From the NCBI GenBank assembly GCA_963804995.1, contig CAWDSK010000006.1, positions 1,952,001 to 2,016,000 of the forward strand: a stretch of DNA of 64,000 nt. Reading direction: 5' to 3'. How positions within the stretch are numbered: position 1 is the first letter of the stretch; each line of letters begins with the position of its first letter. The DNA comes from an uncultured Acidobacteriota bacterium. Its GTDB lineage: Bacteria > Acidobacteriota > Terriglobia > UBA7540. The position numbers and the translations under genes are program-made. Positions 40,344 to 44,821 of the stretch are shown piece after piece. A model generated the notes under the pieces. That model was given only the letters and a program-made list of their open reading frames with translations. It ran no database searches and had not been told where the DNA came from.

Positions 40344-40372
40344 TTGACAGGTTTTGAGAACTGCGATAGTTT
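40344..40372 (+). promoter_or_regulatory. Sigma70 promoter for the tRNA repeat array
   Basis: TTGACA-17 nt-TAGTTT, ending 14 nt before the first repeat. Confidence 0.75.
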
Positions 40373-40386
40373 GAAAAGGTTCTCGC

Positions 40387-40742
40387 AGGCCCGTAGCTCA
40401 GCCCGGTTAGAGCGGGCCGACCCGTCGGCCAGGTCTGGGGCGGGAGAAGCAGATAGCAATTCACAGACAGCACGTAGGCCCGTAGCTCAGCCCGGTTAGA
40501 GCGGGCCGACCCGTCGGCCAGGTCTGGGGCGGGAGAAGCAGATAGCAATTCACAGACAGCACGTAGGCCCGTAGCTCAGCCCGGTTAGAGCGGGCCGACC
40601 CGTCGGCCAGGTCTGGGGCGGGAGAATCAGATAGCAGTTCAGAGACAGCACGTAGGCCCGTAGCTCAGCCCGGTTAGAGCGGGCCGACCCGTCGGCCAGG
40701 TCTGGGGCGGGAGAATCAGATAGCAGTTCAGACACAGCACGT
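40387..40742 (+). repeat. Four tandem 89-bp tRNA-Val-derived repeats with the anticodon arm replaced by a hairpin
   Basis: Units start at 40387, 40476, 40565, 40654; 54 nt tRNA-like plus a near-identical 35-nt spacer. Confidence 0.95.
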
Positions 40743-40820
40743 AGGCCCGTAGCTCAGCCCGGTTAGAGCGCTACCTTGACACGGTAGAGGTCTGGGGTTC
40801 GAGTCCCCACGGGCCTACCA
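40743..40820 (+). tRNA. tRNA-Val (GAC)
   Basis: Cloverleaf: AGGCCCG/CGGGCCT acceptor, GCTC/GAGC D-stem, CTACC-TTGACAC-GGTAG, TGGGG-TTCGAGT-CCCCA, encoded CCA. Confidence 0.97.
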
Positions 40821-40831
40821 TTGGTTCCTTG

Positions 40832-41083
40832 ATGGCTTTCCTCTAAATCCTGGAGAGTCTGACAACAGGCCGCTTTTACATCGGTTCCACCAGCGATCTC
40901 GACCGCCGCATCGAGGAGCACCAGCGAGGGCACACGCCGTCCACGCGAGGCCGCGGCCCGTGGAAACTCGCTTATCGCGAATCCTACCCAAGCTTGCGCG
41001 AGGCTCGCAAACGCGAACTCGAAATCAAGTGCTGGAAATCCGCGAAGCTAATCCAACAATTGATGGCGAGCCAGCCCGGTTAG
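40832..41083 (+). pseudogene. GIY-YIG nuclease copy 1, nonsense TAA at codon 5
   Basis: MAFL*ILES..RFYIGST..RR..EH; 14 of 83 positions differ from copy 2. Confidence 0.85.
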
Positions 41084-41136
41084 AGCGGGCCGCCCGGTCG
41101 GCCAGGTCTGGGGTTCGAGTCCCCACGGGCCTACCA
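41072..41136 (+). repeat. Pseudo-tRNA 3' portion (D-loop to CCA) with replaced anticodon arm
   Basis: cagcccggttagagcg-GGCCGCCCGGTCGGCC-aggtctggggttcgagtccccacgggcctacca. Confidence 0.9.
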
Positions 41137-41148
41137 TTTGGTTCCTTG

Positions 41149-41400
41149 ATGGCTTTCCTCTATATCCTGGAGAGTCTGACAACCGGCCGCTTCTACATCG
41201 GTTCAACCAGCGATTTCGACCGCCGCATGCAGGAGCACGAGCGCGGACACACGCCCTCCACGAGAGGTCGGGGCCCGTGGAAACTCGTCTATCGAGAGTC
41301 GTTCCGGAGTTTACTTGAGGCCCGAAGGCGTGAGGCGGAAATCAAGCGCTGGAAATCAGCAAAGCTAATCCAACAATTGATTGCGAGCCGGCCCGGTTAG
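41149..41400 (+). CDS. Small GIY-YIG nuclease, copy 2 (intact, 83 aa)
   Basis: FLYIL...FYIGST..FDRR..EH...PWKLVYRE...ARRREAEIK. Confidence 0.9.
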   Translation: MAFLYILESLTTGRFYIGSTSDFDRRMQEHERGHTPSTRGRGPWKLVYRESFRSLLEARRREAEIKRWKSAKLIQQLIASRPG

Positions 41401-41453
41401 AGCGGGCCGACCGGTCGGCCAGGTCTGGGGTTCGAGTCCCCACGGGCCTACCA
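41391..41453 (+). repeat. Pseudo-tRNA 3' portion with perfect 16-bp palindrome in place of the anticodon arm
   Basis: gcccggttagagcg-GGCCGACCGGTCGGCC-aggtctggggttcgagtccccacgggcctacca. Confidence 0.9.
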
Positions 41454-41772
41454 TTACTTTCAACAATCTAGCAATCTCGCTTGCCTTTCGCGTTGCTCCA
41501 CATTCCTTCAATAAGTGCCTAAGTTCTTGCATCCACTGACCCACCTTGGCCACAACGACCCCACGCGCCAGAGGAACTCCCAACAATCCGGTCCTGAGTT
41601 GCGATGCGTTCGCCTGAGACAACCACGCTGGTAACATTGGCGCATATTTGAGCCCTCCCTGGGCAGGATGCCAGAGGAACGTACCAACCCGCCAATTGAC
41701 TAACACCGGGGAGCCGCCGTATGATCTTGAGAATTCCCAATTTGGAGATTGTCTCCGGAGGTTGTAGCACAT

Positions 41773-42129
41773 ATGGGCGTGCGGAAGCTGAAACCCAAAC
41801 CTGGAATTAATCTCCCCCCGATCAGCAAAGCGAAACTGGAGGAGCTGATTGAGGAAGCAACGGTAGACGCTTACAACGAAGAGGAACAGACGGTCGGGTT
41901 CCTTACGATGATGCAGGAGCACTTGGCGCTCCCTTTTTCGGTGAACCTTCTCGGTATTGATGCTGTGGTAGAGAAGATCGATATGACCCGGGATGGCTGG
42001 ATTGTGGCGATCTGCCGCCGGGGCGAAGTCCGACAGAAGATAGGAATCCTCGATCTGCCACTGCCAACGCCCGCACCAGAAGGCACGGAATGGATCGCAG
42101 CATATCATCACTGGCGCAGAGGGTTTTAG
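41773..42129 (+). CDS. Hypothetical protein (CcbP-like calcium-binding family)
   Basis: LIEEATVDAYNEEEQ..GF...EHLALPF...EWIAAY; family recognised from memory only. Confidence 0.6.
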   Translation: MGVRKLKPKPGINLPPISKAKLEELIEEATVDAYNEEEQTVGFLTMMQEHLALPFSVNLLGIDAVVEKIDMTRDGWIVAICRRGEVRQKIGILDLPLPTPAPEGTEWIAAYHHWRRGF

Positions 42130-43272
42130 ATGAGCGAATACCAGTATTACGACTTCCGGGCGATAGATCAGGCGCTGACCAAGGCTGACATCGCTGCCCT
42201 GCGATCCATTTCCACGCGCGCCATAATCACTTCGACGAGTTTTACGAATCACTACGAGTGGGGAGACCTAAAGGCCGATCCCCTCAAACTTCTGGAAAAG
42301 TACTTCGACGCGTTTGTTTACGTCGCGAATTGGGGGACGCGAGAGTTCTATCTTCGACTTCCACGGGAGTTGGCCGACTACGGACAGCTCAAAGCTATGC
42401 TTCCCGGCGACGCCGCCCGTGTGCAAAGAGTTGGAAAACACCTGATCGTCGGTTTTGAAGCGCAGTCGGAGATGGATGACTGGGATGATGGCACCGGCTG
42501 GATGGGTTCTCTGCTGTCTCTGCGCTCGGACCTGCTGCGTGGCGACCGCCGCTGTCTTTATCTCGGATGGCTCCTGTGCGTGCAATGTGATGAATTCTCT
42601 GAAGAGGAACTGGAGCCTCCGGTGCCTCCCGGCTTGGGCCAATTGTCGGCTCCTCTCCATTCACTGATCGAGTTTCTTGGAATCGACGAGGACCTTGTCG
42701 AAGTTGCCGCATCGGCTTCAGCGCCGCTGAGCGCTGCCCCGAGCCGGAAGGAATTGGCGGAGTGGATTCAAAATCTACCCGAAAAGGAAAAGAACGATTT
42801 GCTTCTAACCGCTGCGTTGGAATCCGGTGAACGCGGGAAAATCGAATTTCTGCGGCGCTTTCAGCAACAAAATGCAGCACGAACCTTGGACGCACACGCC
42901 GCAATTAAACCCCGTACAGTCCACGATCTTGTAACTGCGGCCAAGACACGCGCAGAAGAGAGAACCCGCCGATTGGAAGCCAAGCGGGCAGCGGAAGCAG
43001 CGCGACAGAAAGCGAAGGACGAGGCCGACCGCGCACGCTATCTGGATCAACTGGAGAAAAGCGAAGGAGAGACTTGGAATCGCATCACGGCACACATCCA
43101 GAAGCGGCAACCGAACGAATATGACAAGGCGGTCAGCTTACTGATCGACCTGCGCGATCTTGCCGTCCGCAAGCAACGTGTTTCTGAATTTCAGTCAGCG
43201 CTGGAGGAACTCCGCCATGCGCACGCCGCCAAGCACAGTTTTCTACGCCGGCTGGAGAAGGCAGAGTTTTGA
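42130..43272 (+). CDS. Conserved hypothetical protein
   Basis: MSEYQYYDFRAID..LT, FDAFVYVANWGTR, YLGWL; abuts the upstream gene. Confidence 0.8.
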   Translation: MSEYQYYDFRAIDQALTKADIAALRSISTRAIITSTSFTNHYEWGDLKADPLKLLEKYFDAFVYVANWGTREFYLRLPRELADYGQLKAMLPGDAARVQRVGKHLIVGFEAQSEMDDWDDGTGWMGSLLSLRSDLLRGDRRCLYLGWLLCVQCDEFSEEELEPPVPPGLGQLSAPLHSLIEFLGIDEDLVEVAASASAPLSAAPSRKELAEWIQNLPEKEKNDLLLTAALESGERGKIEFLRRFQQQNAARTLDAHAAIKPRTVHDLVTAAKTRAEERTRRLEAKRAAEAARQKAKDEADRARYLDQLEKSEGETWNRITAHIQKRQPNEYDKAVSLLIDLRDLAVRKQRVSEFQSALEELRHAHAAKHSFLRRLEKAEF

Positions 43273-43643
43273 TGAGACTGTTGGCAAGTGGTCATATAGC
43301 CAAAGGTCCGAATAATTCCGCCACCGAAAGCGGTGCGTCAATAGGTTTGCCCTTGCTTTTTGTTCCGATGAGGCGTACGGGGTTGAAGTTGAAACGTCTG
43401 GCTGGGTGGTTCAATTTAAAGTAGGGGCCTCATTAGGCCGCAATTTGGTGGGGCAAGCTCGCCGCTACTGCATCAAATTAACCCATCACCGACGATGGGT
43501 GCCATTTCAAGGAGCGCGGAGAGGAGCAGTTAGTTGTTATGAGTTGTGTGTAATGAGGTAGGAATTAGGTTTCAGGTGTTTGGTGTCAACTTTCAACTTT
43601 GAACTCTTAACTTTCAACTCTTAACTGTCACCCCGCCCCCGCC

Positions 43644-44471
43644 TCAGGCGGCAAAAGATTTGGGGAAGTCCTGATCCACAGGGGCGACAGATTCCTGCAA
43701 CAGGTTCTCGATGCGGCTGCGCCAGCCATTCATAACCTTTTGGACCGAAGTGTGGTCTCCCCGCAATTCCCAGTACTGGAGCCTCAGAGAGAGGCGCTTG
43801 TTCCGCACCTTCATCACAAAGGTGTCCCGATCGATATGCCACTCCCCCTCCGTGTAGAGCGAGGAGAGTCGCAGATAGGCGTTCGCATAAAGCTGCAAGC
43901 GCTTCAGGATTTCGGGGGCCAACCGGTCCGCGGTATCCGCCAGGGAGCGGCCCTCAAACACCATGGCCACCACGGCTTCGTAAACGTTGGCGTAATCCGT
44001 CAGTGCCCCGCGCCGGAAGAACGACAGAGGCGAGCTGAATTCCACCAGCACTTCGGAATCCCACAGCCGCGCAAGAAGCGCCGCTTCGAGGTAAGCAAGA
44101 TCAACAAAAGCCGTGGCGTGAGCGGCGCCGGCCGCGATTTCTTGTCCTCGAGCTCCCATCCAATCGCGATAGTCCGTCGCAAGAGTCAGAGCAAACTCCT
44201 GGAGTTGCTCTAAGACCAAGCGCACGCCCCTCCCCATCCCGGGGACTTGGGCCATCGCCGCCCGGACTTCGAGATCGACCAGATCCTTACGAACTTCATC
44301 GCTGTAAATCGCCGGAACAACCACCGCGTGAACACCCGGTTCGATTTCCAACTGACTTACGCGCCGGGTGCTGTAGCTCAAGTCGAGCAGATCTGACCAG
44401 CGTTCGCGTACCGTGGCATTCGAGGTATGGGGGAGCAGGGAGCGCATGGCGAGATTTGTGGGTTCAATCAT
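43644..44471 (-). CDS. Hypothetical protein
   Basis: 275-aa ORF with GGAG RBS; possible sigma54 site TGGCAGTTGCCATGCA at 44487-44502. Confidence 0.7.
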   Translation of the reverse strand: MIEPTNLAMRSLLPHTSNATVRERWSDLLDLSYSTRRVSQLEIEPGVHAVVVPAIYSDEVRKDLVDLEVRAAMAQVPGMGRGVRLVLEQLQEFALTLATDYRDWMGARGQEIAAGAAHATAFVDLAYLEAALLARLWDSEVLVEFSSPLSFFRRGALTDYANVYEAVVAMVFEGRSLADTADRLAPEILKRLQLYANAYLRLSSLYTEGEWHIDRDTFVMKVRNKRLSLRLQYWELRGDHTSVQKVMNGWRSRIENLLQESVAPVDQDFPKSFAA

Positions 44472-44821
44472 TTCGCTCCACTTGCTTGCATGGCAACTGC
44501 CATCCGGATTGCAGGCCTCACGAGCTATCTAGCTTGACCTCATGAAGATAGCCGAAGCGTAGAAATCGGCAGCAGGCAGGGTCGAAAGAATCGTGGGTTA
44601 AACCACGCAGAAGGGGGATTGTCGCTGCAAAAATCTTGATCTGAGGCAGAAACTTAGATTCTTTGCTAACCCGTATTTCTCATTACGTCAGGATGGGGCT
44701 GCCGGAAGAACACGCCTAGATAAAGATGCCCCACTGCGGATAACCACCCCGACACCCAGCGCGCCACCCACGGTAACCACCCCGGCGCTCGGAGCGCCAC
44801 GGGAATCAGGAGGGGAGTTGT

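Follow-up and report, generated by a model that had tools for sequence, protein, structure and literature searches.

The window, the whole 64-kb stretch of DNA that was analysed, contains a single tRNA gene, tRNA-Val(GAC). Four 89-bp units lie 5' of this gene and two units of 316/317 bp lie 3' of it. All six carry part of the tRNA sequence, and each 3' unit also carries a small GIY-YIG gene. The features are as follows.

40344..40372, plus strand: probable tRNA promoter (TTGACA, 17 nt, TAGTTT), read from the sequence
40387..40742, plus strand: four 89-bp tandem units, each with the first 28 nt of the tRNA, a hairpin, AGGTCTGGGG and a 35-nt non-tRNA tail
40415-40430, 40504-40519, 40593-40608 and 40682-40697, unstranded: hairpin copies of the upstream units (7-bp arms, 2-nt centre)
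40743..40820, plus strand: intact tRNA-Val(GAC) (ARAGORN; Rfam RF00005, 67.8 bits)
40771-40787, plus strand: 17-nt anticodon arm within the intact tRNA
40832..41083, plus strand: GIY-YIG mini-gene 1, with TAA at codon 5 (PF01541, E 1.6e-12 for the part after the stop)
41072..41136, plus strand: downstream partial tRNA copy 1, with a D-loop part, a hairpin at 41088-41103 (one stem mismatch) and the tRNA 3' end
41149..41400, plus strand: GIY-YIG mini-gene 2, intact, 83 aa (PF01541, E 2.6e-14)
41391..41453, plus strand: downstream partial tRNA copy 2, with a D-loop part, a perfect palindrome at 41405-41420 and a 33-nt tRNA 3' end

The putative promoter is conserved 5' of tRNA-Val in several same-genus genomes and falls below the threshold of a consensus scan. 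With a promoter at this position, the four upstream units would be part of the pre-tRNA leader. The last 33 nt of downstream copy 1 are identical to the tRNA 3' end, including CCA. The sequence after downstream copy 2 resembles the native flank of cassette-free relatives, a cassette being a nuclease gene with its hairpin-bearing partial tRNA copy. Probable island genes (a CcbP-like protein of 126 aa and unknowns of 380 and 275 aa) directly follow the last CCA, at 41454-44500 of the window. Fragments of the tRNA-Val 3' end recur elsewhere in relatives, which suggests an integration hotspot. Two other regions of the source genome (G000; other G numbers are comparison genomes and L numbers are loci) also stood out. 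G000:C5:1304605-1309125 holds 26 tRNA genes by ARAGORN and a degenerate tRNA-Thr copy, as is typical of a mobile tRNA array. Three identical 50-nt tRNA-Phe 3' fragments at G000:C6:815591, 843299 and 886824 are likely attachment-site scars of stacked islands.

In each partial copy, a hairpin takes the place of the anticodon arm. The hairpins start at 40415, 40504, 40593, 40682, 41088 and 41405, all six in the context GAGCG-[16 nt]-AGGTC, and tRNA identity reaches both arm boundaries every time. This bears out the exact swap described by the sequence-only reading, with the flanks kept and the three hairpin versions as it listed them. The four upstream copies have 28 nt of tRNA identity 5' of the hairpin and 10 nt 3' of it, and the two downstream copies have 16 or 14 nt 5' and 33 nt 3' (10 nt is a floor imposed by the anchors used). 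The upstream copies lack the T-loop and the 3' strand of the acceptor stem; the downstream copies lack the 5' acceptor strand and most of the D stem. Because the upstream copies are near-identical tandem units (96-100% identity), the six copies represent at most three events. Their number, four, is as assembled, and the same unit type is found in relatives. The 35-nt tail occurs at this locus only, genome-wide. An origin of the tail as a promoter duplicate was rejected, the likeness being only faint.

The six-copy hairpin pattern is not due to chance: GGCCGACNNGTCGGCC had no exact occurrence in a 3-Mb order-3 Markov simulation. In the 7.55-Mb genome the exact hairpin is found five times, always at this locus, together with the one-mismatch copy. 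The genome search for this GGCC palindrome proposed earlier thus leads back to the present locus only. Three further one-mismatch matches exist genome-wide, compared with 2.5 in simulation, and blastn found no hairpin-swapped copies of other tRNAs in the source genome.

These copies do not behave as tRNAs. Neither ARAGORN nor Rfam calls any of the six a tRNA, and none can form a cloverleaf with an acceptor stem and a T arm. Folding of three copies gave z-scores of -0.41, -0.34 and -1.91, with no tRNA-like fold. Rfam detected no structured-RNA family other than tRNA and a weak mascRNA-like match to the last copy (E 0.095, below gathering). An RNA motif named COG2827 exists; a link between it and this locus is without support. 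The earlier proposal paired two interpretations, and only one of them stands. Selection to keep a tRNA shape while removing decoding fails on the absent cloverleaf, the missing tRNA calls, the poor folding scores and the decay of upstream units in relatives. Structure-guided replacement is supported, since comparable swaps are found across many phyla at tRNAs of further isotypes, the stems covary and a sister hairpin replaces the stem-loops of REP-like repeats. The stated length of 16 nt also holds only here; in relatives the hairpin ranges from 16 to 19 nt.

The GIY-YIG genes, absent from the earlier account, are each 83 codons long, and each downstream partial tRNA copy closes one of them. 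The stop codon is a TAG in the D-loop-like flank, five bases 5' of the hairpin. In the intact protein Y5, Y16, G18, R26, H30 and E62 are present, and these residues are kept in 42-47 of 47 Val-linked proteins. The GIY-YIG domain makes up the whole protein, and a C-terminal DNA-binding domain is absent. The predicted structure (pLDDT 87.8) matches UPF0213 proteins, then HIGLE and Slx1, and the best matches are of UPF0213 type (PDB 1zg2 and 1ywl; sequence E 6.9e-11, fold E 1.3e-5). Sequence and model together point to an Slx1-like, UPF0213-fold, single-domain GIY-YIG protein with predicted nuclease activity. NCBIfam returned only a sub-cutoff match to a group I intron endonuclease. For the protein, cd10449 may be a likelier CDD model than cd10448.

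The nuclease is under purifying selection. Genes 1 and 2 are 84% identical with dS 0.68 and dN/dS 0.12, so both have long been under selection and are not a fresh duplication. Among nuclease genes the median pairwise dN/dS is also 0.12 (146 usable of 595 pairs, the other 449 being saturated or too close). Synonymous divergence among them is high (dS about 2), which indicates long residence, not recent mobility. With this query, no homologues were found in phage, plasmid or IMG/VR viral collections. Homologue representatives number 593 at 1e-10 and 7,048 at E<=0.001, the upper figure taking in other GIY-YIG groups. In a quick tree (120 rows by 87 columns, 52 of 117 forks open), nucleases linked to Ile, Val, Lys, Gln, Ser, Gly and Pro tRNAs form isotype groups that cut across hosts. 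Same-locus duplicates, rows with stops or fewer than 60 aligned residues, and L166 were left out of this tree. The source genome has four PF01541 matches, none flanked by the YCCC sister hairpin described below. A separate Ssn-type GIY-YIG gene lies at G000:C6:1226337-1226579 (L185) with many GTCATCC-type hairpins around it, and groups with NTS-flanked proteins.

The cassette is optional among relatives of the source organism. Its tRNA-Val(GAC) is 99-100% identical in cassette-free relatives. Among 29 other tRNA-Val(GAC) loci, four have clear hairpin copies (G006, G015, G053 and G045) and two more have decayed upstream units (G003 and G019). Units related to the 89-bp unit number two in G006 and one in G015. 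Two same-genus genomes with a nuclease at the locus carry multi-copy upstream units (four and two copies), and three without it, a small sample, carry one mutated or decayed unit. In the host family the nuclease is patchy, present in 22 of 133 genomes at E<=1e-12 (including the unpublished G140). In 132 of these genomes (source included, G140 excluded; kin are not independent), 17 have the nuclease and a tRNA-flanked hairpin, 4 the nuclease only, 5 the hairpin only and 106 neither; without the seven other unpublished genomes (G063 and G134-G139), "neither" becomes 99.

Beyond the family, the exact window pattern had no matches across GTDB. A relaxed flanked-hairpin pattern identified 72 loci (L031-L102) in named genomes of about nine phyla, among them Acidobacteriota, Ignavibacteria, Chloroflexota, Verrucomicrobia, Gammaproteobacteria, Peribacteria and Bacteroidota. 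Within 1.5 kb, 55 of the 72 have a nuclease and 60 a tRNA (Val, Ile, Met, Pro, Asp, Ala or Leu). The sequence-only reading had allowed for a hairpin confined to this locus, with relatives lacking comparable swaps; the opposite is found. The relaxed pattern forces arm-precise boundaries, so L031-L102 cannot test boundary precision, which rests on the tRNA-first and protein-first loci. The pattern leaves the two outer stem pairs free, and these are complementary in 37 of 39 distinct arms, with eight different dinucleotide pairs. Protein-first loci add inner compensatory changes (GAT/ATC, GCC/GGC and GCT/AGC). The hairpin stems covary.

Of 48 protein-first metagenome loci, 34 have a tRNA and 9 have an arm-swapped copy as scored by script. 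At the seven closest (62-82% identity), six have the hairpin and the seventh is cut by a contig end. In remote clades, the hairpin is absent, replaces the D arm (Pro TGG), or substitutes for the anticodon stem on its 5' strand alone (Lys, Arg). Arm-precise swapping is therefore typical of some clades, not of the whole family. L113 and L114 each have a tRNA-Pro(TGG) copy after the nuclease gene with the D arm replaced by a hairpin, and ARAGORN still calls a tRNA. In most cassettes the hairpin lies directly next to the stop codon of the nuclease gene, and its variant follows the nuclease clade. The GGCC variant is found only beside a nuclease and is not dispersed above control in any of the 133 family genomes. 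A tracking of the anticodon by the hairpin (GAC in Val hairpins, GAT in Ile hairpins) was considered and discarded on counter-examples (L106, L158, L161, Asp and Pro).

The 3' ends of the copies are largely local. In 25 downstream Val cassettes, the 33-nt 3' end of the copy equals the local tRNA variant in 14 and has at most two changes in 18. These cassettes span seven T-arm variants, and one carries a foreign variant. Foreign flanks also occur 5' in L156 and 3' of the upstream copy in G015, the latter a foreign T-arm variant. Local 3' ends and foreign flanks fit crossovers just 3' or just 5' of the hairpin; gene conversion could be another route to equal 3' ends. At 16 loci with upstream-type copies, tRNA identity stops 10-16 nt past the hairpin (10 being the method floor). 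A second hairpin is inserted at the T loop in 4 of the 25 Val cassettes, breaking the T arm. Spare tRNA copies with a second hairpin type at the T loop occur at L045, L079, L092, L105, L106, L029, L019 and L184, and several of these resemble CCTTCG...CTCAGG repeats. The Ignavibacteria G451 (C21/C24/C45/C72) and G452 (C1) hold several tandem hairpin arrays with 81-140-bp spacing and up to 11 copies. At L073 at least six hairpins lie beside tRNA-Val, and no nuclease match lies within 1.5 kb.

A sister hairpin, YCCCGAY-N2-3-RTCGGGR, is dispersed outside tRNAs, in about 280 copies in the source genome. With the two outer pairs relaxed, we counted 281 perfect hairpins, most of them of the sister form and 276 outside the locus, and none in a 3-Mb simulation. 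Counting the core gives 295 (control 2), more than in any other of the 133 family genomes. In other genomes the sister form stands where the anticodon arm would be at Ile, Pro, Met and some Val loci. Only 83 of 287 dispersed hairpins lie in long open frames, which make up 75% of the genome; dispersed hairpins are thus mainly intergenic. Tandem 40-48-bp repeats surround the sister hairpin at C6:1325795-1325973, C3:728097-728884 and C6:887424-887504, with TGCCTA-like low-complexity flanks. The source genome also carries a very large REP-like load (families of >330 and >310 copies) and many multi-copy elements of ~1.9 kb.

In five REP-like families the sister hairpin replaces the resident stem-loop and the flanks are unchanged. 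Hairpin-swapped versus normal copies number 6 versus 313, 8 versus 24, 3 versus 10, 7 versus 22 and 1 versus 331 in families 1 to 5. Families 1-3 are clean; in family 3, some 30 bases on either side are nearly identical. Family 4 is reachable by point changes, and family 5 shares a 5-nt microhomology with the start of the hairpin. By a cruder measure, 77 of 177 contexts have some alternative interior, hardly more than the 55-68 obtained with shuffled pairs, so the replacement claim rests on these five families.

The flanking base is also constrained. On at least one strand, a C directly follows the palindrome in 261 of 267 dispersed copies and in 130 of 136 contexts (partly related), against an expected fraction of 0.5, and 76 contexts with the C have no pairing G on the other side. 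All six window copies have this C on the minus strand. Val(TAC) swaps do not follow the rule. The density of dispersed hairpins is moderately tied to nuclease presence, at 5.9 per Mb in 20 nuclease-bearing genomes versus 1.9 in 104 others (within-genus permutation, p 0.024). The effect is absent in genera g35 and g50, and genomes with no nuclease match reach 117 copies. Both analyses left out the unpublished genomes G063 and G134-G140. Some dispersed copies follow a GTAG tag, which is absent before the palindrome in the window copies and in most dispersed contexts. Copies of the form GTAGCG-hairpin are present in the source genome and in five of five relatives tested, at 5-30 each. Because many dispersed copies lie behind this tag, RAYT amplification is likely for those, together with host REPs. 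The source genome has 14 Y1 transposase matches, and none of the 14 has the hairpin within 1.5 kb.

We compared the element with known systems, the cited papers being represented by part of their text. The Ssn nucleases and their NTS repeats are alike in several respects: a single-domain GIY-YIG gene of <100 aa flanked by its own short hairpins, catalytic Tyr, Tyr and Glu (cd10448; here Y5/Y16/E62), a stem of CCCG...CGGG type, a C right after the palindrome and dispersal of the hairpin in the genome (PMC11893778). In SsnA no base matters more for binding than this C, and cleavage occurs a few bases upstream (Chenal et al. 2025, PMC11893778); the same paper only suggests that nuclease-hairpin pairs are mobile. 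There are also differences. Eight Ssn-type rows, six of them NTS-flanked, form a separate branch in the quick tree (SH-aLRT 98, length 1.15), and the 83-aa protein is 33% identical to the N. gonorrhoeae homologue (pairwise E 3e-9). The published degenerate SRM pattern is unmatched at the locus, where there is no GTC tag, and has 52 matches elsewhere in the source genome; the pattern is not fully sensitive and also missed the hairpins of that genome's own Ssn-type gene. The present cassette is lodged in tRNA genes, whereas "tRNA" occurs 0 times in the main text of PMC11893778, and the present hairpin, unlike what the consulted part of that paper describes, replaces other stem-loops. Our best reading is that the element works like Ssn/NTS but belongs to a separate clade.

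Other systems share single traits. GTAG REPs and REPINs with their RAYTs are likewise short intergenic palindromes in hundreds of copies, many after GTAG (Di Nocera et al. 2013, PMC3733652). The present hairpin differs in flanking no Y1 gene, its partner being a GIY-YIG gene, and in serving as an interchangeable core within tRNA copies and within several unrelated REP families. SegB of phages T4 and T6 is a GIY-YIG gene among tRNA genes with tandem amplification of tRNA-nuclease units (PMC2330249, PMC13096335). It is phage-borne and two-domain and cuts dsDNA at a T-loop motif, whereas the present protein is chromosomal and has 83 aa; hairpin-stamped tRNA copies do not figure in the portions of those papers covered. 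IS1272 moves by "replacement by structure-dependent transposition", in which the mobile sequence ends up where a stem-loop had been, with no target duplication (Wan et al. 2017, PMC5678879), but IS1272 is a 1.9-kb IS with a DDE transposase and the present hairpin is 16-19 nt with no coding part. Stand-alone Slx1-like/UPF0213 proteins (PDB 1zg2 and 1ywl; PMC1564403) are closest in sequence and fold, and the part of that source covered mentions no tRNA or hairpin linkage. HIGLE and Slx1 cut branched DNA. A search of open-licence PMC and bioRxiv, with the Ssn supplement covered in part, found no literature on hairpin-swapped tRNA copies or the sister repeat. The element is real, widespread and undescribed in the open-licence literature searched.

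We consider the locus to be, with reasonable probability, a stacked small selfish tRNA-gene cassette consisting of a mini GIY-YIG nuclease and a hairpin-stamped partial tRNA copy. This reading builds on the anatomy of the locus, its recurrence, stem covariation, purifying selection, isotype-following clades and stem-loop replacement in both tRNA copies and REP-like repeats, all of which are observed. We infer the enzyme activity and the chemistry of the swap. The nuclease would bind the hairpin as ssDNA on the strand with the following C, here the template strand of the tRNA copy, and nick some bases 5' of it, inside the variable-loop/T-stem part. By analogy with SsnA, the nick would lie within AGGTCTGGGG, the stretch in which the upstream units depart from the tRNA sequence. 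The nicked end, with its tRNA flanks, could then recombine with the genuine tRNA gene. Crossing over on the 3' side of the hairpin would give tRNA-ORF-copy, with a 33-nt direct repeat; crossing over on its 5' side would give the upstream copies, and repeated nicking may produce tandem arrays. The hairpin itself would be copied from an existing copy into other extruded stem-loops, replacing them at the stem foot after a G. In tRNA genes with G26, this stem-foot boundary would be the anticodon arm. The cell would not survive a swap in its sole working tRNA gene, and swaps would therefore persist in spare copies only. As part of this explanation, the copies are probably DNA-level by-products and recognition sites, not designed tRNA mimics. 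The GIY-YIG domain cuts DNA and is not known to join it; completing the swap therefore takes host repair or a further enzyme. More tentatively, the 16-19-nt hairpin may itself be mobile and spread by replacing DNA stem-loops such as tRNA arms and REP stems at their foot, with mini Slx1-like nucleases lodged in tRNA genes acting in trans. The source genome today has no nuclease gene matching its dispersed YCCC variant; this, the undispersed GGCC variant and the only moderate tie between hairpin density and nuclease presence count against a simple link.

An alternative that we regard as unlikely, though the strongest of the rivals, treats the hairpin as a separate REP module of GTAG type that RAYT (HUH) transposases or host repair have moved and swapped, with the nuclease cassette only supplying spare tRNA copies. 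The D-loop end of these copies, GGTTAGAGCG, resembles the GTAGCG tag, and HUH enzymes both cut and join ssDNA, according to the part of PMC3733652 covered. The Y1 matches, the GTAGCG-hairpin copies in the source genome and relatives, and dispersed copies in genomes with no nuclease match all fit this view. However, no Y1 locus is flanked by the hairpin and most dispersed contexts lack the tag; the hairpin also adjoins the nuclease stop in most cassettes, varies with the nuclease clade and, as GGCC, stays exclusively beside a nuclease. A function at the RNA level is improbable. The copies might be anticodon-less decoys for tRNA-cutting toxins, or their T-arm/CCA end might direct processing of the nuclease mRNA. 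They lie within the tRNA transcription unit, the downstream ones keep T arm and CCA perfectly despite dS 0.68 between the two ORFs, and the last has the weak mascRNA-like match. Yet a cloverleaf is impossible, folding scores are poor and the last copy has no conserved 5' pairing partner. Broken T arms in 4 of 25 cassettes, decaying upstream units and the same hairpin class in intergenic REPs argue further against it.

Classical homing, in which the nuclease would cut the native anticodon-arm DNA of cassette-free alleles and the hairpin would be the cleavage-immune version, we judge more doubtful still. A homing enzyme of the GIY-YIG type that cleaves tRNA genes is known in SegB (PMC2330249), which also brings about tandem amplification (PMC13096335); the isotype-specific clades and the patchy presence of the nuclease are also in keeping with homing. 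Under that scheme the target should be altered, but the tRNA of the allele with the cassette is intact and does not differ from that of cassette-free relatives. The protein lacks a DNA-binding domain, the phage, plasmid and viral collections yielded no homologue with this query, and immunity needs neither one shared hairpin across phyla nor its presence in REPs. Least probable, and largely refuted, is that a single chance mutation was afterwards duplicated, or that the copies reflect an IS footprint or a fault of the assembly. The upstream copies are near-identical, their number rests on the assembly, and IS1272 is an example, from the part of PMC5678879 covered, of how ISs can replace stem-loops. 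Recurrence at different tRNAs in many phyla, with covariation, speaks against chance. An IS-footprint origin was rejected, as none of the multi-copy elements in the source genome is bounded by the two hairpin arms as a terminal pair.

The origin and spread of short palindromic repeats in bacteria are still to be explained. What is new here is a sister hairpin that replaces resident stem-loops in several REP-like families. Donor, recipient and boundary can be read directly, the same hairpin class having taken over the position of a tRNA arm and those of several unrelated REP stems, next to a fixed flanking base. Hairpin replacement thereby becomes testable with one 83-aa protein and short oligonucleotides. 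The cassette also accounts for a type of "pseudo-tRNA" debris and for tandem arrays found next to tRNA genes. If the proposed reading is true, these genes would be a large second family of candidate sequence-specific ssDNA nucleases, each of fewer than 90 aa and with differing hairpin specificities. The hairpin would be a "stem-loop-swapping" element without any gene, smaller than MITEs by an order of magnitude and present in many phyla.
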